Origin: Naegleria gruberi | Lineage: Eukaryota | DNA: 64,000 nt | Direction: 5' to 3' (one strand) | Assembly: GCA_000004985.1 (NCBI GenBank) | Contig: GG738884.1 | Part shown: piece after piece, positions 1 through 21,477 of the stretch | Position numbering within the stretch: the stretch's first letter is position 1 | How the letters are laid out: every line of letters begins with the position of its first letter | Made by a program: the position numbers and the translations under genes | The notes under the pieces: generated by a model | Told to the model about the DNA's origin: nothing | Seen by the model: the letters and a program-made list of their open reading frames with translations, nothing else | Databases searched by the model: none

Positions 1-2418
1 ACACTACCAAGTTGGAGACTACAATCTCACTTTCATTATCAAATGTTTGGAATTCCAACAAAGATGTTGTACTATCATTTTCAACTTTAAATACAGACAG
101 CTTAATAGGAATACTCTCACTAAGGAGGAGCCTAAAGCCCAAGTTGGCCTTCTCACCAGAATCAACTCTATACCTAAATAACTCTCGTTCCTGATTTGTG
201 AAATATCTTCCCTGAAGTGGTAAAGCTTGTAAAGAGAGTGACTTGGCTACATCTAAATCGAAAACATCATTCTCTGATATTGTTTCTAAGGAGTAAGTGG
301 TTGCTTCTAGATCTCTGTTAGGGCAAGCATAGCAGATTAGAGAATATTGCTGAGGACTTGGGAACAGTTTCACAGGGAAGATTCTACCATTGATTGATTT
401 CACAACAGCTGTAGTCTCATTGTTAACAAGCATTAGATGAGTGAAGGGAAGAATGGAGATATCATCCACCAGTAATCGAGCACTAAATACTCCTTCCTTA
501 TCAATTATTAATTGGTGGCTAGAAAGGTTTTGATAAATAAAAATAGTACATTATTCAATACTTACATGCTCCAAACTTTCCACTCGTTATTTTTGTGAGT
601 CGGAGATGATAAGGCACCAGTTCTTTGTATGGATTGACTGAGTTTTGTTGTATAAATATCTTCTTGTTTACCAAAAGTTAATGGCTTTTCGCTAATAAAT
701 TCGACATATTGATTCTCAATATTCGTAAATCTTATTTCGAAAATGTCAAAATCATCTTTACATGGAAGAGTTACAGGGAGGATGCTATCAAACCCAGAAA
801 TTGTAAAGTCATAAATTAGTTTGCTAGGAGTTAGTTTCTTCCAATTACTGGCCTTTTGAATAGACACTTTTGGCTTTACTTCATCCTTGATTCCCATTAC
901 CCGTACGAATAACCTAGATGTTTCTGTTACATAGAAAACAATTGGGCTAGTGGTGGTCACATGTTTTCCAAGGAAGGCAACTGTTTTAAATTGTGTAATT
1001 TCATGTGCAACATATACGCAGTCAAAGTAGTCTTGCAGTTCTTCCAAGTCAATCCAAAAATCTTTCATTCTTTTTTCAATTCTTCTATCTTGATAACAGA
1101 ATCCAATTTCAATTTCAAAATCTGCTGTCCAAATAGAAGAATTCTTGTAAGAGTATTTTCCACCCCAAGCAACATCATTTGAAATAATTCTTAGTAAAGT
1201 ATGACCTTTGAATACAGAAATATCCTCAATTCTGAATAAATTATCTTTTTTAAGTCCTTGTGATTCTATATCTACATCTTTTTTACATTTTAAAAACATT
1301 AGTTTTCTCTTAGTTTGATCGCAATCCATTGGTGCCCTACAAAGATATTTAACTAAACTGAAGGTAGATTTCCATTCCTTGTGTGATTGAAGGGAAAGTG
1401 TCAGAGGAGAGATTACATCTAGAATACTTTCACATGAAACTGGTTGCATGGAAAAGTCAGAAAATAGGCAAGAGAAGCACCACAGAGGATCTGTAAATGC
1501 CAAATGTTCTTCTCCATTTGAAAGAGCAATAATTCCTTTCAAAATTATTGAAGGCCAGAATTCATCATAGGGAGAAATTGGAAACATTATTTTACCATTT
1601 GCATCATGTGGGAGCTTATCATCTACTATTACAATTCTTTCTTTTCCTTTGTAACGAAGTTTAATGTAGTATCTTCCCCATGGTGAGATATCAGGTAATA
1701 CATCACTACCTGGTCGTTTTGGCCATATTCTTTCCCAAAGATAGGATCCAAAAGGAATCATTTCTTTGCATTCCTCAATTTGGTAAAGAGCTGAAACGAA
1801 TGCCTTGGTCCACCCTCCTTTGTTAGAAATGTCAAGAACTTTGGTGTATTTTTCAAAGTCTTCCACAACAATTTCTTCTTCATCACAATCCAAAGTCAAT
1901 TCTTGTTGAACAGGAACTGGTTCCTTTTCTTCAACTTTTTTAGTTTTTGATTTAGTTTCGGGAACTGAAGATTTTGGCGGTTCTTTTGCTTTTATCCTCT
2001 CGTAGTAAGGATGGGCTGGGAAGAGATCTCTAGATATCCTTGGTTCCCATTTTGATTTGATTGATTTCCATTCCTTGACTTGAGAAGAAAATTCCGAACA
2101 TTTTTCGTTGAACACTATTTCACTAGAATCCTTTGCAATAACATCTTTAAATGCATCCTCTGTTGTAGACCCTTTTTTCTTACTATTTGATGGAGGTCTC
2201 TTATTTGTTTGAGCAGATACTTCTTCAGGATCTCCCAATAATTGTTTATCCCTCTCCATTAATTGTTTTAAAACTTCCTCATTCCACTCTGGAAATACTT
2301 TTTCCTCATATTCACTACTGGAGTATATCGTATCGGAGAGAAGAGTGATCTCAACTTTGTCATTCTTTTTCCCTCCTTTGGATGGTGCTTTCTTTGAGAG
2401 TGAGGGTGATTTCGACAT
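1..2418 (-). CDS. Calpain-like cysteine-protease-domain protein, probably catalytically inactive. Partial: it runs off the 5' edge of the window. Exons 566..2418 and <1..518, intron 519..565.
   Basis: ATG at 2416-2418 (MSKSPSL...). The calpain domain II signature is present: ...IVIVDDKLP..EFWPSIILKGIIAL (compare VIDDxLP..EFWSALLEKAYAKL), a His motif FKGHTLLRI (compare GHAYSV), and a SND..WGG region. The expected QGxLGDCW active-site block reads NKGGWTKAFVSAL, so the nucleophilic Cys is absent. A GTAAGT donor overlaps the ORF-track stop at 562-566, and a ttctag acceptor at 519-524 leads into an open frame that continues to position 1. Confidence 0.6.
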
Positions 2419-2794: not shown

Positions 2795-4237
2795 ATGTCT
2801 GCAACAATAACATCAGCAGGCAATCATTCCCTTCAGATCACCATTCCCTCCTATCAGGTGAGGAATGATTATATAGTCTATCAACTTGTCCTCTCTCTAT
2901 TCAATTCTACAACTTTAGCCGTAACAAAAGAAATAACATGCAAGAAACGATATTCCGAGCTCAGAGATTTTCATACCGATGTTGTTTGCTCTCTTTTACC
3001 AAAAGATAAACAAGCAATTCTCAAGTTTCCTGCAAAAATTATGTTCGGAAATATGAAGAAGGAAACTATAGAGAAGAGACTAATGCTTCTCGAACAATAC
3101 TTTTCATCATTATTGTCTGTTTTAAATTGGGATGCAGATAAATATTCAGAGTTGAGAAATGCTATCGTAAAATTATTCGAATCTACTGGGACGCCCTATG
3201 TGAGCAAACAAACAAATAGTTTGATGGATAATTCTTTTGAAGAAAAATGTTATAAGGAATTAACTCATCTTCAATTATTGTTAAATGATTCCGAGTGTTA
3301 TTGGCTTCCTTTTTGTTCACCTTTTAAATATGCTAGGTCAACTATGAGTGTAACAACAAACATTTGTAAATTAGAACAACAAGCTGAAAAGGTGATACAG
3401 AAACTTTACAGTGCAATGGATGAAAAAAGCCTTCTTTTAAAAGCTCAGAAATTTGTAACTAATTTTGTGAGCAAAATGCATGAACTGACACTTAGCACTG
3501 CAACTCTCTTCAAGGTTCTACTCAATATGGAAGAAGCACAGGATCAGGAAAATTGCATTAATGACATAATTAATCAAGGAATACAACATTTGGAGGAAGC
3601 AACCAGAATGAAGAATGTGTTGAATAGAGATTATTTTGAACCAATGTGGAAACAAATTACAAAGGGAGATCTCAGCAAGGAAATCGTAATGGATTTTTAT
3701 TTAACTTTGGTATTGCTTGGAGTAAATCCAAAATATAGATCGAGCGATGTTCTACTTGCGGCCATTGATTTAGATGAAGAATTTTCAAAGGAAGCATTAG
3801 AATATAACAATAATTTCATGAATAGACAAGCTGGATTTGAGGATGAATTTAGCTATCTCAGTTTTGCACTTGATACTGATTCACAATCTACCTATGATGA
3901 ACCTGCCAGCAAATATCATCAAGTGGTTTCGAATATTTGGAATCAACTCGATATTAGAGTGGAAACAAGTTCGCTAGACAAGTTAAAAGACAGATTCGAA
4001 ATAGCAACAGAGGAATGTGAGAAAAAGACTTCTTTTTACATTGGATTATCACAAGCTCTCATCAAGGTATCAAAAACCATGTTGGAAATGAGAGGGAAAT
4101 TATCACAGACAGCTCTTCTTAATGTAATTCCTGAAATCAAATCAAGTTTAGAGGAAGTGCAAATAGCTCTTATTAGAATCCAGAAAAAGTGTGATGGATT
4201 TATTGAGCAACAAGATTTACGAAGTAATGGCAAGTAA
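2795..4237 (+). CDS. PX-domain protein (sorting-nexin-like), single exon
   Basis: ATG at 2795. PX motifs are present: KKRYSELRDFH (consensus RRYSDFxxL) and LLPKDKQAILKFPAKIMFG...IEKRLMLLEQYFSSLL. The C-terminal half is helical and BAR-like. Confidence 0.6.
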   Translation: MSATITSAGNHSLQITIPSYQVRNDYIVYQLVLSLFNSTTLAVTKEITCKKRYSELRDFHTDVVCSLLPKDKQAILKFPAKIMFGNMKKETIEKRLMLLEQYFSSLLSVLNWDADKYSELRNAIVKLFESTGTPYVSKQTNSLMDNSFEEKCYKELTHLQLLLNDSECYWLPFCSPFKYARSTMSVTTNICKLEQQAEKVIQKLYSAMDEKSLLLKAQKFVTNFVSKMHELTLSTATLFKVLLNMEEAQDQENCINDIINQGIQHLEEATRMKNVLNRDYFEPMWKQITKGDLSKEIVMDFYLTLVLLGVNPKYRSSDVLLAAIDLDEEFSKEALEYNNNFMNRQAGFEDEFSYLSFALDTDSQSTYDEPASKYHQVVSNIWNQLDIRVETSSLDKLKDRFEIATEECEKKTSFYIGLSQALIKVSKTMLEMRGKLSQTALLNVIPEIKSSLEEVQIALIRIQKKCDGFIEQQDLRSNGK

Positions 4238-4264
4238 AAACTCCGATTTTCATTATGATAAAAA

Positions 4265-7200
4265 ATGAAAGGTGGCAATCTCTCAGTATCTAAATTGGAT
4301 AATGACAGATACACTCAGCCACCAACAACACGATCACAACACACCATCTATTCAAGATCATCAACTCTTTTCATCATCATTCTAATAATTATTTTATTAA
4401 TTTCTTCCTTCTCGAGTCTATTCGTTCTCTCTCAATCGAACTATTGTAAAGATAAAACCTATCGATTCATCAGTGTTGTTCCTGATGAAGGTGATGCAAC
4501 CAATTCATTCAGTGGTGATAAATTAAAAACCTCCATCTCTATTGGCATTGATTATTTACGGGCTCAGGGAATTTTACCAACAGGAGTTTCCATTGAAAAT
4601 GTTTTTGTTGTTACAAAGAATGATTTATCGGGTGCTATTGAAAAGATGAGGAATTTAATTATGGTCAATGGAACAAAGGATGAAAGATATGTGGGAATTA
4701 TTGGAGCGTAAGTTTTTAAAGATGATTAATATTGATGATTATTAATGATGAATTTGTAATCGGAATTAAATGATTATATTCATTGATAATGATAACATCA
4801 TGTGGAGAATAGTTACTACAGCTATGAATCTTTGACGATTGCTTATGAAATTGCCTACGAATATCAAATTCCAATGATTTCGTATGGTTCTTCTACGTCT
4901 GTACTTTCGTATAACAGATGGTTTTATAGAGTGTAAGTTTTAGGAAGAATCAGAGATTATAATTGATTAATAGTATTCCATCTTCGTTAGCCATGACATC
5001 TGCAATGGTGGAATTTTTATATTCTTTGGAGTGGTCAACTATTTCAGTTTTGGCATCAAATGAGGTTTATGGAGTTGATTGTGCAAGGAATATTCAAGCA
5101 ACAGCTAAAGAAATTGGTATGACCATTGATAATGTATATTATTTCAAGGTTGGTGATCACCAAGAATTAGCAGATCGAGTTACAAAAATCAAAGAATCTG
5201 GAACCAAGGTGATTGTGACAATTATGACTTCAGATACTGATGCCACTTTTCTATTGGGAAAAATTAAGGAAATGCAACTCAACACTGAGGGATATATTTG
5301 GATGTTTGATGAAACTTTTGCCTATCAGCCTGGTATTTCTGCAAAGAATGTTTCACTCACATCTGATTCACAGGGAATGTTCTTTGTGGAATTGAATTCT
5401 GGGTTGTGGTCTAGTGATTTGTACTTTGTTGGAAAGTTTATGCAACAATATAATTATTCGAGTGTGGAAGAGACCTATTCACAAATTCAAGCTTTTGATG
5501 TAAGTATTATTAATGAAAATATAGAGTGATGTTAACGAATTACAGAGATTTGCATTCGACTCTGCTTTGAGTTTTGGTTATACTATTCGTGATATGTGTC
5601 AAAGTGGATTGGATCCAACTCATGGTGTTGCGATGGTTTCCTCTATTGATCAAGTATCATTTATTGGAGCTAGTGGAAAAGTTTCGTTTGACTCTTATGG
5701 AGATCGTTTGGGAGTTTATTATTCTGTAAATAATGTGGATGGAAACGAGGCCACCATTGTTGCTAAATGGAGCCAACGTGAATCTATAGTTTGGGACGAA
5801 TTTTTCTATGTAAATAGAACTCTCAGAGTGCCTTGGGGTAAAATCACAAATGTTCAAATCTTTTTGAATTCACCCCTTACAGGAAACAGATGGTTTTCAA
5901 TTCCATCAGTCAATCAGGTACCACCAGAACGTCACAGTCATACCATGTCTCTAGGAATTACAACAAATAGACTATATTTATTTGGAGGTAATTCTCAATC
6001 TAAACTTAATTTTGACATGTATTCTGATTTGTGGAAGTATGATTTTATCAGTGGACAATGGTCTAAAATGGAGGCTCTCGATGGATACTCTCCAAAGGGT
6101 AGAGAGGGCCACATAATGTGGACTGTTCAAGCTGGTGTCTATAGCACGGATGAAAGAATCATTATATTTGGAGGAAAGTCAGGTTCTTACACAGATGACA
6201 TGCTCGAATATTCTACTCTCAGATCTCAGTGGAGAACAATTTCTCCAAATTCATACAAGCCATTTGCGAGATACTCAGCCAAGATTGCTCAGTACAAAAA
6301 CAAAGTCTACATGTTTGGAGGTTTGACCTATAATGGTGTAAGAGATGATATGTGGATATGGAATAATGAGAATTATCAATGGAGTAAGGTTAACCAGACA
6401 TCCTCGGCTGTTTGGCCTTATGGTAGATATTCTCACTGTATGTCTGTTTATACATACAATGGAAATCCGTATATTTTACTTTTTGGAGGAAAAGGTCCAG
6501 CTGGTGAACCTTTATCTGACATGTGGCGTTTTGACATGACTCAAGAAACTTGGGCTCAAATAAGTCAAACAGGAGATGTTCAAGGAGCTGTGTTTGATTC
6601 TACATGTGTAGCCACTGATAAGTATTTATATGTATTACATGGAAAGACTGTAAAAGGAAGTCAACAAATTATGTTCAAGAAGGTAATGAGAGCTGACTTG
6701 CCGTTCACACAAACATCAGTCAAATGGAAAGTGACAGAGTCCAATCTCAGCGATCCTAGGTCAAATGTTGCTTCTGTTTTCTTTTCCAATTATATTATTT
6801 GGTTTGGTGGTCTAGGTCTAGATTATGACTTTAATGATTTTTATTCATTGAATGTCATTAATCAAAAGATTGTTAAAGTGAATAAGAACTTTTTTGCTCC
6901 TAGCCCTGTAGTAGCTCACACCATGTCTACCTTAGGTGCATCCCTTTACTTATTTGGAGGATATATTGGTGATGACATTCCTTCCAATCTACTCTACAAA
7001 TATTCTATTGCATCCGAAACGTGGTCTATTGTCGATACTCAAACTAAACCATCACAAAGATCATATCACACCCAAGTGACACTTGGTGATCGTATTTGGG
7101 TGTTCGGTGGTATTGAGTCTTCATCAAAAGTTTATTCTGATATTTGGACCTTTTCTGCCAGTGCTGATTCATGGACTCTTGTTGAGCCTAGAACATCTGC

Positions 7201-9848
7201 AGTACCTATAGCAAGATATAAGCATGCAATGACAAGAAATGAAACCCATTTGTTTGTAATTGGTGGTAGAACTCAAACAACTCAATTGACAGATATTTGG
7301 GCTTTTGATACAGAAACGAAAACTTGGTCGAAATTCAAGCAAATTATTACCTACGCCTATACAATAGATTGCTCTGCAAAATGGTTCTCTGCAGAAGAAA
7401 CAGGATCATACCCTGCTATTTTACTATTTGGTTGTCATGATTTTTCAGGTACGCCAACAGCTAATTATTACAAGGTTGAGATAACTGACGTTAACAATGA
7501 CCAGTTCAGGCTATCATACAGTACATTGTTTAGAGAAATAGAACCTAGGTCAGGGTTGGTAGCTGTCAAGTTATCAGGATTCAAATCAATGATATTTGGA
7601 GGTAGAATGGATCAAGAATTGTTTAATACCTTATTGCTTGTTGAGGGATCTACTGGAAACACAAGTGTGATTCTTCCTCCATTGACTGAGCATGAACTAC
7701 CTTCTGCTAGAGCCTACCTTTCCTATTCATTTATTGGAAATTCAATTTACATATTTGGTGGTGTTGGTGCACCAGAAGGAACTGAATTCATTTTACCATC
7801 TCTTAGAAATGGTGACATGTGGAAATATAATATTGGCAATGTTTGTAAAGGCAAAGATTCTACCAATTGTTACAAATGTGGACCAGGAACTTATGAAACC
7901 TATGGAATGTGCGAATTTTGTCAGCCAGGGTCATATAATGAGCAGTATGGAGCCATTGATTCATGTACAGCATGTCCAAAAGGATTTTACAGTGATGTAT
8001 ATGGAGCAAATCATGCTCAGTTTTGCCTTCCTTGTGAGTATGGTACCTATTCTGATAAGCCAGGAAGTACCTATTGCTTACCTTGTCCAGATGGAGCTGT
8101 TTGTCAACTTGGTGCTATCCAACCAGTCTATAACTATACAAAGATTGCTTACAGAAAATCAAATCAACCAGATGCCTACTTTTCCAAAGAAGTGGAGAAC
8201 AGTAATGCTATCAAAATTGAAGCTGGTATTATTGCATCAATTGCTGGCTCTCTTATTCTGATAGTGTTTTTCTGTTGGAAAGTTTTTAATATTCCAAAAG
8301 AAAACTGGATCAAGAGAATGGACTTTTTCTTTACTGAGAGACACAATAGATTAATGGGTACAATGATCAAAAGAAGATCAATTGTTGGAGCTTGTTACAG
8401 TTTTATTGTTTTGGTAGCGTTCTTGGCCTACATTATTGCACTTGTTGTCCCTTACTAGTAAGTACAATTATTTCGAATATTTTATTAGAAAATTTTATTT
8501 TAGCAATTACGGAAATTATGTGGAAAACAGAAGCTTGGTTCCAAACCTTGCTTTGGATGACGAATTCAAATCAGATGCAGTGATTAGCCTAAAAATTCTA
8601 GGTTTTAACGGTCGGTGCACTGAGGGAAATCAAACAATTATTGACAAGCCAATGAAATGTCAAGAGAAGCTGTCCATATTCCTGGAATCAATTGATTATG
8701 ACAATTCCACGAAAGGTAGTAATTTCGAATATGATTGTCAAATTGACGATGATGGAGCTGGTTCGAGAAGTTGTATTGTTTCTATGAGATTTACTAATTG
8801 TGCATTTGCCAAAGATAGAAAAACAGCAACTATTGGTATTAAGGTTGGTGGTAGTAATGCATTTGCCAATGGATATGAGTATCAAGTAGATTTTGCTTCT
8901 GCCTACATTGATGTTTATATGCCTGAAAAATTACCACAGAGATCAGTAATTAATGGCACAATTTACTCTGATGATAACACCTTCTTTAGAGGAACCAAAA
9001 CTCCAACCCAGGTCAATTTCCAATTAATTCAAAACAGATACACAATTCCATCTAAAAATATTAAGCAAACAGGCTATGTCATTGATTTCCAAGATCAGTC
9101 ACAGGGAGACGTTGTTGAATCTCTATCATTTAGTCACGAAAATGGCCTTTATTTTGTGTTGAGTTTTGAAAAGCTATCCACAACACTTGAATTAGTTCTC
9201 TCTGAGAAGAAGGTTATCTTTGTCTTTTTAACTGACATGCTTGCTTCACTTTCAGGTATTTTCTCATTGACAGCATTGACCATGTCAATAACTGAATTTT
9301 TCATTTTCCACTATAAGAGAATTAGAGCTAATTTGATTGCCTATAGAAAGAAACATGCCAGTATGGATACCAACTATTTATTGGACGAAGTAGTACTTCA
9401 GGGAACTGAATATCAAGCAATGAAGAAAAATCTCAATAGACAAGACGAAGCATTCTACGATGACATTACAATAGCCAAAATTTATCACAAGAAGGGAATG
9501 AGAAGAAATGTTGTGTACATTCCTTCCAATGCTCTAGAGGATGAAGAACTCATCGATGCTAACCAACATGAACTAGTCACTGAAAAACCACCCTCAACAG
9601 AAACCTACATGGAAATGCACGAGAATGCAGACGAATATGCACCACCAGTTTTAGCCAACAACCGATCTGTCTCAATTTTCTCCAAACGAAAGAAGAAGAA
9701 TTCAAAGTCTGAACTTGCAGAACCATTCATTACCGAAGAGGAAATGGATTTGGATGATCTTGTCAATGAGCAAGACAATAATTTCTCACTCAATGACATC
9801 AAAGGACCACTCACATCTTCAACCACAGCAGTACCTTACTACAAATAA
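4265..9848 (+). CDS. Large membrane receptor-like protein of about 1781 aa: N-terminal TM anchor, ANF-receptor/periplasmic-binding-protein (Venus flytrap) ligand-binding domain, Kelch beta-propeller repeats, GCC2_GCC3/ephrin-receptor-like Cys-rich repeats, multiple TM helices and a cytoplasmic tail. Exons 4265..4707, 4813..4932, 4974..5499, 5546..8457, 8504..9848.
   Basis: ATG at 4265 followed by a hydrophobic LFIIILIIILLISSF segment. The PBP1/ANF_receptor motif YGSSTSVLSYNRWFYRV is split across exons 2 and 3. More than 10 Kelch-like blades with recurring LYLFGG/IIFGG/VYMFGG/LLFGG/WVFGG motifs lie between 5900 and 7800. A Cys/Tyr-rich block CYKCGPGTYETYGMCEFCQPGSYNEQYG..CTACPKGFYSD..CLPCEYGTYSD..CLPCPDG follows, then TM IIASIAGSLILIVFFCW and TM ACYSFIVLVAFLAYIIALVV. 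Introns have GTAAGT donors and TAG/CAG acceptors, and all phases check. The last donor (GTAAGT at 8458-8463) overlaps the in-frame TAG at 8456-8458. Splicing to the acceptor at 8503 continues an open 448-codon frame that contains a further TM (LASLSGIFSLTALTMSI) and an acidic tail. Confidence 0.55.
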
Positions 9849-9960: not shown

Positions 9961-11228
9961 ATGTCATCGTCAACCTCTGCTGTTGATGCCAAGCAAAATT
10001 CAAAGGCATCCGAAGAAGAACGACATGATCAAGTTTCCCTCGGAGAGTATTTTGTTGTGTTTACCTTTATGGCTTTCTCTCTATTGATACATTTGTACTT
10101 ACCATTCCCAAGTACCTATGTTTTCAAAGCCTACTTTATTTATTTTGTTTTCCAATATGCACTGGCTAGATTCTTACCTGGTACTATAGTAAAGGGTCTG
10201 CCTTTGGAGGATGGTACTGTGTTGGAGTATAATTGTAATGGACTGCAAGCTTACTTGATTACGTTATCTTTGTTTTTGGCTGGTGGACATGTTGGTTGGT
10301 GGAAGTACTCAATTGTCTATGATCACTTGTTGGAATTTGTGGCTGTTACTAGTATTTTCCATTGGTGTTATTGGTCAATTGTTTTTATCAAAGGAAGAAT
10401 GTTAAAGAAGAGAGAATATAATGATGGATTAATTAGAGAAGTTTGGTTGGGTGCTGAAAGAAATCCAAGAATTCTTGGAGTTGATTGTAAATTATTCTTT
10501 GATGGAAGACCAAGTTTACTCACATGGGTTGTTGTTGCATTCTCATATGCATCAGTTCAATATGAAAAGTATGGTGCCTTCAGTACTCCAATGCTTATTT
10601 ATTTAATCTTTTCATTCTTGTACATGTTGGATTTCTTTGTAACTGAGAATCAATTCATTACTGGATTCGAAATTTATCAAGAAAGATTTGGATTTATGTT
10701 ATCTTGGGGTAACTTTGTTTGGTAAGTAGTGACTATCTCAATACTCAATTGACCAAATTATTTAGGATGCCATTTGTCTGTACTGCTCAAGCTTATTATC
10801 TTATTGAGTGGAGTGAACTTCCAACATGGGGAAGCATTGCTGTTTGTCTTTTGTGGTTATTTGGTTATGTTGTTGCTAGACTTTCAAATGCTCAAAAGGA
10901 TAAATTCAAGAGAGAACCAAATGCTCCATTCTTGGGTATCAAGTCAAGGTATATTGAAACTCCTGAAGGAAAGAAGGTTCTTACAAGTGGATTCTGGGCA
11001 TTGTCTCGTCATCCAAATTATTTTGGTGAATTGGCAAACTCACTTTCATTCGGATTGATGTGTGGATTTGATAAGGGCATTTTCCCTTACGCTTACAGCA
11101 TTTTCATTTGGACCTTGTTGTTTACAAGATACGAAAGAGACCACAGAAAGATGGCTGTCAAGTATGGTGCCTCATTTGACAAGTACTGTAAAGAAGTCAA
11201 GTACAAGATCATTCCATATTTATACTAA
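9961..11228 (+). CDS. Sterol reductase of the ERG4/ERG24 family (delta14-sterol reductase / 7-dehydrocholesterol reductase-like). Exons 9961..10721 and 10766..11228.
   Basis: Family signature 2 is a perfect match: VLTSGFWALSRHPNYFGE. The protein is multi-TM throughout, and the C-terminal MAVKYGASFDKYCKEVKYKIIPYLY resembles the family C-terminus. One phase-2 intron, GTAAGT...ttatttag, was verified. Confidence 0.75.
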
Positions 11229-11375: not shown

Positions 11376-12353
11376 TCACTCACAAAACAAGTTCAATTCA
11401 CCCAATTCATCATATTCTACTTCAGTTTCTTCACAGACCACTCTTGGCTTTGGATTCATAAAGTTTTCGTATTTTTCAATGAAAGAAAGTAGTCCGTTGA
11501 TATTCGAAACCGGTTCACCCCAAAGTTTAATCTCTTGCTTATTCGTTTCCTCATATGAAATTGAATATTTCCTTCTGAAAACCATTCTCCCAGCAAATAT
11601 TCTTTCATACATAAAACTTCTACTCCAACTCCTTGTTCTGCAAACATGTTGAGCAGTTAAAAATCTTTGAATAAGGTTTACAATTCCAAAGTCATCTCTC
11701 ATGTTGTTGTATACATAATTCCTCACAAATACAATGCTCTTTGGATTTTGTATAAGGGCTGTTTTTACGAGATCCTTAGTTAGAATGCTTGAATTGACGT
11801 ATTTGAGGGATTTTCCGTTTTGTTTGACAGCTGCCAAGGCTATTTTATAATCACTCTGTAATCTATGTGAAGCATCTCTCAAGTTTAATCCATTCAATTT
11901 AACACATTTCTTTACAAAATCCCCATTATCCCTTAGTACATCATCCCCAAATCCAAGAATGGCTAACTTTCTAATAGAACATTCAACTGCCACCTCCAAA
12001 ACTTCTATTTCCTTATCCAATGATGATAAATACAAAACCTCTCCTCTCGTCTTCTTCATTATACTCTTGAACAATTCTTGATTCTTACTAAACAATTGCT
12101 TTACAATAATTGCAGTGTCATACGAGCATCGATAGAAAACACTTCGTGTTCTCTTTTTCTTCCGAAAACAATCATCAATATCTCTGAAGAATTTTACAAC
12201 CTTTTCCATTCCCCAATTTTTGTATTCAACAACTTGATGTGATTCTTCTTTGAAATTGTTTTTCATTAATTGAAAATATTTGTGATGATGATAAAATTCT
12301 ATCAATCCAAGTGATTGAGAATCGAGTAGGCATACAACTGGTATTGCTGACAT
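11376..12353 (-). CDS. DUF4116-repeat protein (hypothetical)
   Basis: ATG at 12351-12353. Tandem repeats of the form LRDASHRLQSDYKIALAAVKQNGKSLKYVNSSILTKDLVKTAL match the DUF4116 repeat pattern (..AvkqnG.aLkya...l..d.e.v..A). Confidence 0.5.
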   Translation of the reverse strand: MSAIPVVCLLDSQSLGLIEFYHHHKYFQLMKNNFKEESHQVVEYKNWGMEKVVKFFRDIDDCFRKKKRTRSVFYRCSYDTAIIVKQLFSKNQELFKSIMKKTRGEVLYLSSLDKEIEVLEVAVECSIRKLAILGFGDDVLRDNGDFVKKCVKLNGLNLRDASHRLQSDYKIALAAVKQNGKSLKYVNSSILTKDLVKTALIQNPKSIVFVRNYVYNNMRDDFGIVNLIQRFLTAQHVCRTRSWSRSFMYERIFAGRMVFRRKYSISYEETNKQEIKLWGEPVSNINGLLSFIEKYENFMNPKPRVVCEETEVEYDELGELNLFCE

Positions 12354-18453: not shown

Positions 18454-21400
18454 ATGAGCAAACAAAACACCAAGAAAAAGACCGAACTTGAGAAGGTCAC
18501 CTTCACAAATTCTACACCACTGGGTGAAAAGAAGGACGTTCAATCCATTGAAATGCCTGCTCAATACCATCCAGAATTTGTAGAAATGGCTTGGTACGAG
18601 TATTGGCATAAGAAGGGATACTTTACTGCTGATGCCAACGATACAACAAAGGAAACATTTACTATTGCTTTACCTCCACCAAACGTTACAGGATCTCTCC
18701 ATATTGGACATGCTCTTACTGTAGCTGTTCAAGATGCCATCTGTAGATATCACAGAATGAACGGAAAGAATGTCTTATATATTCCTGGTGTTGACCATGC
18801 TGGTATTGCCACACAAGTTGTTGTAGAAAAACAATTAGCCAAGCAAGATCCTCCAGTTTCAAGACACGAAATCGGAAGAGAAAAATTCGTAGAAAAAGTC
18901 TTTGAATGGAAGGAAGAATATGGTCAAAAAATTATGAACCAACTTAAGAGAATTGGTGCTTCTTTGGATTGGACTAGAGAATGCTTCACTATGGACGAAA
19001 CACTGAGCGTTGCTGTCAAGGAAGCTTTCATCAAAATGTACGAACAAGGAATTATTTATCGTAAGAATAGATTGGTAAATTGGAGTTGTGTTTTGAAATC
19101 AGCTATTAGTAACATTGAAGTCGACAGTGATGAGGTTGAAGGAAATAAGCTCTTTATTCCAGGCCATCCTGAAAATAAGAAATACGAATTTGGTAAAATG
19201 TGGTCTTTTGCTTACAAATTTGAAGATCAAGAATTTGCCAATGATGAAATTATTATTTCCACAACTCGTCCAGAAACAATGTTGGGAGACGTTGCTGTAG
19301 CTGTCCACCCAGACGATCCAAGATATAAGAAATTCCACGGAAAGACTTTGATTCACCCATTCCTTGAAAGAAAATTGGTTGTTATCACTGATAAGGAATT
19401 GGTTGATATGAATTTTGGTACTGGTGCTGTCAAAATCACTCCAGCTCACGATCCAAACGATTTTGAATGTGGTCTCAGACATAATTTGGAAATGATCTGT
19501 GTTTTCACTGATGATGGTAAGATCAATGAAAATGGTGGTGAATTCAAGGGTATGATGAGATTTGATGCTCGTTATGCTGTCATTGAAGAATTGAAGAAGA
19601 AGGGTCTCTACAGAGATGAAAAGGTCCACAAGCTCGCTCTTAAGAAGTGTTCTCGTTCAAAGGATGTTATTGAACCAATGCTCAAGCCTCAATGGTATGT
19701 CAAGATGGATGATTTGGCCAGACAAGCTTGCGAAGCTGTTCAAAATGGTACTTTGAAGATTGTTCCAGAAAGAGAAAAGACTACTTGGTTCCACTTTTTG
19801 GGTGCTGAAAACGTTCAAGATTGGTGTATCTCAAGACAATTATGGTGGGGTCACAGAATTCCAGCCTATCTTGTCAAGATTGCTGGTAAGGAACATTTGA
19901 GTGCTGATGATGAAAAATGGTGGATTGTTGCTCATGATGAACAAGAAGCTAGAGCTAAGGCTATGGAAAAGTTCAAGGATTTGGTTACTTCTGAAAGTGA
20001 TATCATTTTACAACAAGACGAAGATGTTTTGGATACTTGGTTCTCATCTGGTTTGTTCCCATTCTCTCCTTTGGGTTGGCCAAATACTGAATCTGCTGAT
20101 TTCAAGAGATTCTTCCCAACTCAAATGCTCGAAACTGGTTTGGATATCTTGTTCTTCTGGGTTTCTAAGATGGTTATGATGAGTTTGAGTCTTACTGGTG
20201 AACTTCCATTCACTGAAGTTTTGCTTCACGCTATGGTTAGAGATAAGGAAAATAGAAAGATGTCTAAGAGTTTGGGTAACGTTATTGATCCAATTGACGT
20301 CATTGAAGGTATTACCCTCCAAGAAATGAATGACAAGCTCAAGCAAGGTAACTTGTCAAGCAGGGAAATTGAAAAGGCTGCTCTTGGTCAAAAGAAGCAA
20401 TTCCCTGAAGGTATCCCTGAATGTGGTACTGACGCTTTGAGATTCACTTTGTTGAACTATACTGCTCAAGGTCGTGACATTGCTTTGGATATTTTGCGTG
20501 TCTTTGGTTATCGTACTTTCTGTAACAAGATGTGGCAAACTACCAAGTTTGCTTTGATGAACTGGACTGATTTCAAGTCGGAAGGTATTGAAAACTATCC
20601 AACTGATCTTTCTAACTTGACTTTCAATGACAAGTGGATTCTCAGTAGATTGAACAAGACCATTAAGGCCTGTAACGCTTCATTCGAAAAGGGCAATTAT
20701 GACTTTATGACATATACTCAATCTTGTTATGATTTCTGGTTGAAGGATTTGTGTGACCAATATTTGGAAATGATTAAGAATGATATCAAGTCTGAAGATT
20801 TGAACAGACGTAGAACTACTCAATTGGTTTTGTACACTTGTATTGAACAATGTTTGAGATTGTTGCACCCAACTATGCCTTTCATTACTGAAGAATTGTG
20901 GCAAAGACTTCCAGGTCACTCTGCTTTCCCATCCAACAGAGAATCCATTATGATTTGCCCATATCCTGCACCAGTTGCTGCTTGGGAAAATGATAACGTT
21001 GAAACTGAAATGAAATTCGTTATGGAAGTTGTTCACGCTATTAGATCACTTAAGGGTGCTTACAAGTTGACTCCAAAGCAAACTCCTGAAGTTTATATTA
21101 TTACAAGCTCTCAAAATGATCTCTTGAAGAGTGTTAAGGCTTATATTGAAATGTTGGCCTTATCAGGAAATCTTTACTTTGATGTTGAAGTTAAGGATAT
21201 TCCAGCTGGTTGTGGTGTTGAAGTTGTTAACCAATATTGCGAAATTCACATGATGCTTAAGGGACTCATTGATATTGACCAAGAAGTCAAGAAGCAAGAA
21301 AAGAATAAGGAAAAGCTTGTTAAGGTTCGTGACTCGCTCATTGAAAGAACTCAAACAGAAAAGTACAAGACCAACACTCCAGAAGAAGTTAAGAATAATG

Positions 21401-21477
21401 ACCAAATCAAATTGGAAGGTTATAACCTTGAACTTGCCAAGATTGACGAAACCATTGAACGTTTGAAGAAAATGTAA
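18454..21477 (+). CDS. VARS: Valyl-tRNA synthetase (class I aaRS), single exon
   Basis: ATG at 18454. HIGH motif PPPNVTGSLHIGHALT and KMSKS motif RKMSKSLGNVIDP are both present. The editing/CP1 region and the C-terminal coiled coil, and the full length of 1007 aa, are typical of eukaryotic ValRS. Confidence 0.95.
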   Translation: MSKQNTKKKTELEKVTFTNSTPLGEKKDVQSIEMPAQYHPEFVEMAWYEYWHKKGYFTADANDTTKETFTIALPPPNVTGSLHIGHALTVAVQDAICRYHRMNGKNVLYIPGVDHAGIATQVVVEKQLAKQDPPVSRHEIGREKFVEKVFEWKEEYGQKIMNQLKRIGASLDWTRECFTMDETLSVAVKEAFIKMYEQGIIYRKNRLVNWSCVLKSAISNIEVDSDEVEGNKLFIPGHPENKKYEFGKMWSFAYKFEDQEFANDEIIISTTRPETMLGDVAVAVHPDDPRYKKFHGKTLIHPFLERKLVVITDKELVDMNFGTGAVKITPAHDPNDFECGLRHNLEMICVFTDDGKINENGGEFKGMMRFDARYAVIEELKKKGLYRDEKVHKLALKKCSRSKDVIEPMLKPQWYVKMDDLARQACEAVQNGTLKIVPEREKTTWFHFLGAENVQDWCISRQLWWGHRIPAYLVKIAGKEHLSADDEKWWIVAHDEQEARAKAMEKFKDLVTSESDIILQQDEDVLDTWFSSGLFPFSPLGWPNTESADFKRFFPTQMLETGLDILFFWVSKMVMMSLSLTGELPFTEVLLHAMVRDKENRKMSKSLGNVIDPIDVIEGITLQEMNDKLKQGNLSSREIEKAALGQKKQFPEGIPECGTDALRFTLLNYTAQGRDIALDILRVFGYRTFCNKMWQTTKFALMNWTDFKSEGIENYPTDLSNLTFNDKWILSRLNKTIKACNASFEKGNYDFMTYTQSCYDFWLKDLCDQYLEMIKNDIKSEDLNRRRTTQLVLYTCIEQCLRLLHPTMPFITEELWQRLPGHSAFPSNRESIMICPYPAPVAAWENDNVETEMKFVMEVVHAIRSLKGAYKLTPKQTPEVYIITSSQNDLLKSVKAYIEMLALSGNLYFDVEVKDIPAGCGVEVVNQYCEIHMMLKGLIDIDQEVKKQEKNKEKLVKVRDSLIERTQTEKYKTNTPEEVKNNDQIKLEGYNLELAKIDETIERLKKM

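Follow-up and report, generated by a model that had tools for sequence, protein, structure and literature searches.

A Naegleria gruberi gene probably encodes a Venus-flytrap and Kelch-propeller receptor with an Erv41/PAC-like membrane module

Introduction

The Erv41-46 complex cycles between the endoplasmic reticulum (ER) and the Golgi and binds its cargo in a pH-dependent manner (PMC4298680). In the PDI-C proteins of plants, stramenopiles and rhizarians, a thioredoxin domain is inserted in the Erv41/46 scaffold (PMC4729789). Venus-flytrap domains, in turn, are known from receptors without seven transmembrane (7TM) helices, such as the Venus kinase receptors (PMC2680970) and the glycosylphosphatidylinositol (GPI)-anchored EhVFT of Entamoeba (PMC12965686). 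Here, we describe a gene that probably brings a Venus flytrap together with an Erv41/PAC-like membrane module: positions 4265-9848 (+ strand) of a 64,000-nucleotide (nt) stretch of Naegleria gruberi DNA (contig GG738884.1 of assembly GCA_000004985.1), called the window below. We read this locus as one gene for a multidomain membrane receptor of 1781 residues, interrupted by ordinary introns, and give this reading a probability of about 0.8. The figure belongs to the explanation as a whole, that is, the single gene, the ordinary introns, the domain architecture and the Erv41/PAC-like module together.

A first-pass annotation, made from the sequence alone, had singled out the locus for its unusual chimera of domains and for stop codons lying on the donor of the last intron. 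It took these stops for a possible intron-retention switch between two receptor isoforms, with two separate genes as the alternative. The switch proves ordinary; the lasting interest is a protist receptor family with an Erv41/PAC-like module. In this family, protist flytrap sensors are joined to a membrane module that is not a 7TM, a kinase, a cyclase or an ionotropic glutamate receptor (iGluR) pore. For Naegleria, whose species include the pathogen N. fowleri, the family also supplies a definite candidate for sensing of the environment or for receptor trafficking.

A single gene of five exons

Between the start codon (ATG, 4265) and the stop codon (TAA, 9846-9848) lie four GTAAGT sites, each of which breaks a long open frame. 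Joining the five exons of Table 1 yields a single open frame of 1781 codons, and the four short GTAAGT introns are ordinary spliceosomal introns. Acceptors were chosen as the nearest AG after a T-rich or AT-rich tract, with junctions gapless against the orthologues; 24 combinations of other acceptors also leave the frame open and were set aside. A ciliate-type code (TAA/TAG read as Gln) was rejected, since genes in the window end on TAA and the source is Naegleria. The acceptor AG of intron 4 occupies 8502-8503, so that exon 5 begins at 8504. All the earlier coordinates that we checked (the ATG, the stops, the donor at 8458 and the acceptor to 8503) were correct, and splicing adds exactly the 448 amino acids (aa) first reported. 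The start of a second open reading frame (ORF) at 8650 was approximate, as exon 5 has its first in-frame ATG at 8652.

The single-gene model, with its splice from 8457 to 8504, is borne out by proteins that run continuously across this junction. The orthologues of N. lovaniensis (C9374_003713, 1793 aa, 55% identity over 99% coverage) and Willaertia magna (ABK040_008888, 1636 aa, 41% identity) both align across all four exon junctions. The string VPY-YNY(G/N)NYVENRSL (the hyphen marks the junction) bridges intron 4 and does not otherwise vary among the three species; the 20 aa around this junction are 80% identical to each of the two. Downstream of it, the segment 8504-8651 has no ATG. Its conservation in orthologues had been proposed as a check, and the segment is indeed conserved: its protein identity, 58% to N. 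lovaniensis and 48% to Willaertia, is at or above the averages for the whole protein (55% and 41%), and it includes residues invariant throughout the family. In addition, three homologues checked at the DNA level have uninterrupted ORFs across the membrane module: a JGI metagenome contig (L003, 1944 aa), a Logan eukaryotic contig (L005, 1649 aa) and Acrasis kona (L006). Homologues from Entosiphon, Rhodelphis, Paulinella and Lapot are derived from transcriptomes.

Intron content varies between species, and intron 4 is shared. In N. lovaniensis, the Kelch region of the orthologue holds at least one additional intron (L001 8500-8627), and its last exon (within L001 10577-11995) shows an apparent gap that is absent from the N. 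gruberi gene.

The 1781-aa model was not found as an exact sequence in a collection of 15 billion proteins, in which the neighbouring valyl-tRNA synthetase is present, the only exact match among three nearby ORFs that were looked up as well. Among the homologues retrieved there was no N. gruberi protein and no clear N. fowleri protein. The public NEG-M model of the gene may differ from ours or be split.

Domain architecture

The predicted protein comprises, in order, a signal anchor, a Venus flytrap, two six-bladed Kelch propellers, a disulfide-rich stalk, a first transmembrane (TM) helix (TM1), a loop, TM2, a beta-sandwich, TM3 and a tail. A Pfam scan detects all three domain types that had been proposed for the ectodomain, the last of them at the borderline. 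ANF_receptor (PF01094) covers aa 91-429 with E 5.6e-36 (124.8 bits, cut-off 25.4, spanning positions 6-352 of the 353 in the profile), and the nearest solved flytraps are those of mGluR4/7/8, CaSR and T1R (E 1.5e-13 in a sequence search of the PDB). The flytrap motif YGSSTSVLSYNRWFYRV lies at aa 172-188. The receptor serine aligned with what we take to be the carboxylate-binding serine of mGluR is conserved. The Kelch families reach a best E of 7.7e-113, with PF24681 at 375.7 bits and Kelch_1 to Kelch_6 all over the cut-off; Beta-prop_ATRN-LZTR1 matches with E 1.6e-67. By a count of xxxGG motifs there are 12 blades, in line with the earlier figure of more than ten and enough for two six-bladed propellers. 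Ephrin_rec_like (PF07699, the current name of GCC2_GCC3) scores 23.5 bits against a cut-off of 23.1; in relatives it scores 22.2-49.7 bits, and only P0038 is under the cut-off. The stalk holds 12 cysteines within aa 1130-1216.

Hydrophobic stretches are found at aa 34-56, 1254-1276, 1308-1332 and 1569-1592, the last three after the ectodomain. This agrees with the earlier description of a non-canonical membrane part: the Pfam scan of the receptor returned no 7tm_3 match, and the ectodomain is followed by no more than three hydrophobic helices. In the absence of a 7TM, coupling to G proteins is excluded. Both ectodomain parts carry N-glycosylation sequons and conserved cysteines, and the ectodomain is expected to face the outside or a lumen. 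The cytosolic tail of 181 aa, which had been called acidic, is so only mildly (31 D+E against 24 K+R) and carries an acidic EDEELI motif.

The membrane module and its family

The best-conserved part of the protein is its membrane module, about 340 aa made up of TM1, a cytosolic loop, TM2, a beta-domain and TM3, with intron 4 inside it, right after TM2. The sequence added by splicing had been described as an extracellular-like segment followed by a third TM helix; the third helix stands, and the segment as a whole is the second half of this module. Identities to N. lovaniensis and Willaertia are 84 and 68% in the loop, 77 and 42% in TM2, and 78 and 69% in TM3. A search of 1.84 billion representative proteins with a profile of TM1 to TM3 recovered 262 relatives at E<=1e-3 (82 at E<=1e-10), and in 91 of the 262 the whole module was matched in one stretch. 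These 91 homologues belong to six eukaryotic lineages. The architecture is therefore not a one-off chimera. Homologue searches by word index, starting from the C-terminal 445 aa and from a 44-sequence profile, returned fragments only.

In positions numbered on the N. lovaniensis module (row 1 of alignment A4), the family conserves D50 and H57 in the loop, a GG pair at the start of TM2, and N99, E102 and P108 just outside TM2. Further conserved features are six cysteines, FRG and GY motifs, two glycines in TM3 and a glutamate at its cytosolic end. The beta-sandwich domain has three conserved disulfide pairs and is expected to be extracellular or lumenal. A family consensus, D..F...(H/K)....T..GG, precedes the TM helix and is presumably the counterpart of the ERGIC_N motif.

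Named members come from Heterolobosea (Naegleria, Willaertia, Acrasis), Euglenida (Entosiphon), Metamonada (Kipferlia), Rhizaria (Paulinella, Lapot) and Rhodelphis. Most relatives combine Kelch repeats, Ephrin_rec_like and the module, and some have weak NCD3G matches. The full order of ANF_receptor, Kelch, Cys-rich region and module recurs in Rhodelphis marinus and in metagenomic eukaryotes, with ANF_receptor at the start of three relatives (P0015, P0019 and the R. marinus protein P0055). No paper describing this receptor family was found in the literature searched, and the family appears to be widespread among protists and uncharacterised.

Relationship to Erv41/46 and PAC

The module of N. 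lovaniensis (aa 1263-1661) was modelled with AlphaFold2 from a 44-sequence alignment, with a predicted local distance difference test score (pLDDT) of 90.8 and a predicted template modelling score (pTM) of 0.79; the same modelling with five sequences gave a pLDDT of 44.6 and was not used. The model predicts a lumenal twisted beta-sandwich between two TM helices, as in the Erv41/46 fold. Its best Foldseek matches are full-length PAC/ASOR/TMEM206 chains (E 3e-10 to 1e-7, probability 1.0), with low template modelling scores (TM-scores) of 0.23-0.45; Erv41p follows (E 1.4e-5), and then P2X, PDPNaC1 and ENaC. At the level of sequence, Pfam ERGIC_N matches 12 of 44 family members below its gathering cut-off (best E 6.1e-5; P0014 has 17.3 bits against a cut-off of 27), and COPIIcoated_ERV matches two of the 44 weakly (E 0.078). 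A PDB sequence search with the C-terminal part of the receptor gave no meaningful match.

Since its topology (cytosolic stretch, TM helix, lumenal beta-sandwich, TM helix, cytosolic tail) fits that of Erv41/46, we call the module a distant Erv41/46-like relative. More precisely, the comparisons show the part from the loop to TM3 to be a distant relative of the Erv41/Erv46 (ERGIC2/3) fold that also resembles PAC and is a member of neither family. As a separate observation, Erv41p and the PAC/TMEM206, DEG/ENaC/ASIC and P2X ectodomains all occur in one fold-search match list for the module; no paper pairing TMEM206 with Erv41 was found in the literature searched.

Several points weigh against this explanation or parts of it. 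The orthologue proteins of N. lovaniensis and Willaertia are themselves gene predictions, and it is from conservation that we infer constitutive splicing. The structure model is that of the N. lovaniensis orthologue, which is 58% identical to the window protein over the module. The link to Erv41/46 is transitive and structural; ERGIC_N had no match in Naegleria, where the N. lovaniensis module was scanned in place of the window protein. A sequence-profile search of the PDB with the 44-member module profile (E<=10) returned nothing meaningful and no PAC chain. Finally, the high conservation of TM2 and TM3 would equally fit a channel or an oligomeric transducer.

A possible sorting receptor or channel

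Because of the Erv41/46 relationship and the EDEELI motif of the tail, the mechanism that we favour, tentatively and at distinctly less than even odds, is that of a sorting or cycling receptor working in an Erv41/46-type or sortilin-type manner. The flytrap and propeller ectodomain would capture a small ligand or a glycoprotein partner, the flytrap itself presumably binding a small ligand. The conserved three-TM module and the tail would then set the fate of the receptor, most likely by sorting or cycling it between compartments.

A ligand-gated channel, the main alternative, is compatible with a single gene and competes with the sorting mechanism only. Here, TM2, the beta-domain and TM3 would form a trimeric pore in the style of PAC, ASIC or P2X, gated by the flytrap and Kelch ectodomain. 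PAC chains head the Foldseek matches, with P2X, ENaC and PDPNaC1 further down. Conservation within the protein is highest in TM2, TM3 and the cytosolic loop, and glycines and glutamates in or beside the helices are conserved family-wide. However, the sole sequence-level signal is to ERGIC_N, the TM-scores to PAC are low and there is no sequence similarity to PAC, which leaves the channel unlikely. It is more doubtful still that the family forms an unrecognised class of ligand-gated channels, with flytrap and Kelch propellers gating a PAC/ASIC-like two-TM oligomeric pore. If so, the class would be an analogue of iGluRs on a different pore, and Erv41/46 cargo receptors would be linked to PAC-type channels deep in evolution.

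Stop codons on the intron 4 donor

The overlap that first drew attention to intron 4 is real. An in-frame TAG (8456-8458) is followed by TAA (8459-8461), and the donor GTAAGT begins at 8458, exactly on these stops. From this arrangement a switch had been proposed, in which regulated retention of intron 4 would give a 1333-aa isoform ending after TM2, and splicing the full receptor. A retained transcript would indeed encode a cleanly truncated protein. The arrangement is kept in N. lovaniensis (L001) and Willaertia (L002), where an intron occurs at the same position and phase (TA-GTAAGT in each), and intron retention is known generally in N. gruberi transcriptomes (PMC6142364). RNA-seq data for the species exist under accession PRJEB23822.

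The conservation of the stops is, however, forced. The TAG arises because a phase-2 intron splits a conserved Tyr codon (TA-C or TA-T) and the donor G is obligatory; the TAA, because the GTAAGT donor used by all four introns follows in phase 2. The stops shared by the three species therefore carry no independent information for a switch. Nothing singles out intron 4, as introns 1-3 behave likewise: each of the four, if retained, halts translation within 0-9 codons. Beyond splice signals, intron 4 and the two orthologous introns have no sequence in common, nor are they of one length: intron 4 has 46 nt, its counterparts about 67 and 44 nt. Five of the 116 long open stretches in the window end on GTAAGT; a stop on a donor is not more than chance.

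What retention would produce also argues against a switch. Truncation would cost the module, which is contiguous in the 91 homologues, its beta-domain and TM3. The product would end four residues before N..E.RSL.P, the most conserved extracellular motif of the family, and part it from TM2. Moreover, the stop would lie about 1.4 kb upstream of the usual 3' end, a position that would target the mRNA for nonsense-mediated decay. A regulated switch is thus improbable, even if nothing excludes occasional retention of intron 4. In our reading of the sequence, the TAG-TAA at the donor is an automatic by-product of ordinary splicing and not a switch. The negative is worth having: whenever a phase-2 intron has a GTAAGT donor, an in-frame TAA results, and if the intron splits a Tyr codon, so does a TAG.

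The two-gene alternative, a receptor at 4265-8458 ending at the TAG and an independent membrane protein from about 8650 to 9848, is exactly the split that a splice-unaware ORF caller makes (as in P0006, which ends ...TIVPY) and has an in-frame ATG at 8652 to start from, but it is refuted by the conservation of the ATG-less segment at or above the protein average, by the family-invariant residues within it, and by the union of both halves in one polypeptide in 91 homologues, with three verified single uninterrupted ORFs.

P0006, from an ENA/Logan contig, has 628 aa, corresponds to about 6600-8458 of the window and is 98% identical to the N. lovaniensis module where they overlap. It is the product of a splice-unaware gene caller stopping at the same TAG. 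Public protein collections therefore contain truncated copies of the receptor gene.

Features and genomic neighbourhood

Table 1. Predicted features of the receptor gene and of its neighbours, in window coordinates
Feature	Position (nt)	Strand	Evidence
Calpain-like peptidase	562-2418	-	
Exon 1: start codon, cytosolic N-terminus, signal anchor (aa 34-56, nt 4364-4432), start of Venus flytrap	4265-4707	+	Open spliced frame; junction sequence GIIGAYYSYESL kept in orthologues
Intron 1: 105 nt, phase 2, GTAAGT...AG; in-frame TAA right after donor G	4708-4812	+	
Exon 2: flytrap domain with motif YGSSTSVLSYNRWFYRV	4813-4932	+	Pfam, PDB relatives
Intron 2: 41 nt, phase 2, GTAAGT...AG; in-frame TAA right after donor G	4933-4973	+	
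Exon 3: flytrap domain, continuing	4974-5499	+	Pfam
Intron 3: 46 nt, phase 0, GTAAGT...AG; stop after 9 codons if retained	5500-5545	+	
Exon 4, whole: ANF_receptor end to TM2	5546-8457	+	Pfam, blade and Cys counts, hydrophobicity
ANF_receptor end (exon 4)	to 5743	+	
12 Kelch blades (exon 4)	5888-7831	+	
Cys-rich Ephrin_rec_like stalk (exon 4)	7844-8104	+	
Conserved membrane module TM1-loop-TM2-beta-sandwich-TM3, spanning intron 4	8216-9302	+	Homologue alignment
TM1 (exon 4)	8216-8284	+	
Conserved cytosolic loop (exon 4)	8285-8377	+	
TM2 (exon 4)	8378-8452	+	
Intron 4: 46 nt, phase 2, 15% G+C, GTAAGT...TTTTAG; splits Tyr1334 (TA-C)	8458-8503	+	
Exon 5, whole: beta-domain, TM3, tail, TAA stop	8504-9848	+	Alignments, structure model, fold searches
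Family-wide motif N-x-x-E-x-R-S-L-x-P (exon 5)	8514-8543	+	
Erv41/PAC-like beta-domain (exon 5)	to 9206	+	
TM3 (exon 5)	9207-9302	+	
ERG4/ERG24 sterol reductase; first exon ends on phase-2 GTAAGT at 10722	9961-10725	+	
DUF4116 protein	11376-12353	-	

The window is AT-rich (about 35% G+C) and gene-dense, and its ORF at 18454-21477 is identical to the valyl-tRNA synthetase XP_002674360.1 of N. gruberi NEG-M. Calpain, PX, receptor and ERG4/24 follow one another in this order in N. lovaniensis too. The gene next upstream of the receptor encodes a PX-domain protein here (2795-4237, +), in N. lovaniensis (L001 4536-5942) and in Willaertia (L002 4028-5672), and in a metagenomic family member (P0024, 1728 aa) an EF-hand and a PX domain are fused after the membrane module. 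This adjacency and fusion may point to a functional link with phosphoinositide-marked endomembranes, or may be plain synteny. Only 27 nt (4238-4264) separate the stop of the PX gene from the ATG of the receptor; the 3' end of the PX transcript and the promoter or 5' untranslated region of the receptor therefore overlap or are extremely short. From the receptor stop to the ATG of ERG4/ERG24 there are 112 nt.

Comparison with known systems

Among known flytraps, that of the receptor is most similar to those of the G-protein-coupled receptors of class C (mGluR, CaSR, T1R, GABA-B), which share with it a Cys-rich stalk, here placed after the propellers. In contrast to them, the receptor has 12 Kelch blades between flytrap and stalk, no 7TM and an unrelated membrane part. 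Venus kinase receptors, natriuretic-peptide receptor guanylyl cyclases and EhVFT likewise carry a flytrap on varied anchors and outputs, amoeboid protists included. Yet they are without Kelch propellers or an Erv41/PAC-like module, and where theirs is a kinase, a cyclase or a GPI anchor, the output of the receptor is none of these. Attractin/MEGF8 and sortilin/Vps10 resemble the receptor in their beta-propeller ectodomain, Cys-rich region, TM helix and tail with sorting-like motifs; they are single-pass proteins without a flytrap or an Erv41-like module, and the likeness to sortilin is an analogy only.

The two-TM trimeric channels (PAC/ASOR (TMEM206), ASIC/ENaC and P2X) differ from the receptor in sequence, with no similarity and low TM-scores, and the receptor has an extra helix, TM1, and a giant N-terminal ectodomain that PAC-type channels lack. 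With Erv41p/Erv46p (ERGIC2/ERGIC3; ERGIC_N and COPIIcoated_ERV; structure 3ZLC) it shares the succession of cytosolic stretch, TM helix, lumenal beta-sandwich, TM helix and cytosolic tail, as well as the ERGIC_N matches in 12 of 44 members of its family. Unlike Erv41/46, the receptor adds a TM helix and a 1200-aa ectodomain of flytrap, Kelch propellers and Cys-rich region before the module, and a 181-aa tail after it; the Pfam scores of its family stay under the gathering cut-offs, with Naegleria lacking a direct match. ER-Golgi cycling and pH-dependent cargo binding are features of Erv41/46 that the receptor may or may not share. In PDI-C, the thioredoxin domain sits between two Erv regions, whereas the receptor carries its large ectodomain and one TM helix N-terminally. 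PDI-C is nevertheless an earlier known case, among eukaryotes outside the opisthokonts, of an Erv41/46-type module joined to a further functional domain.

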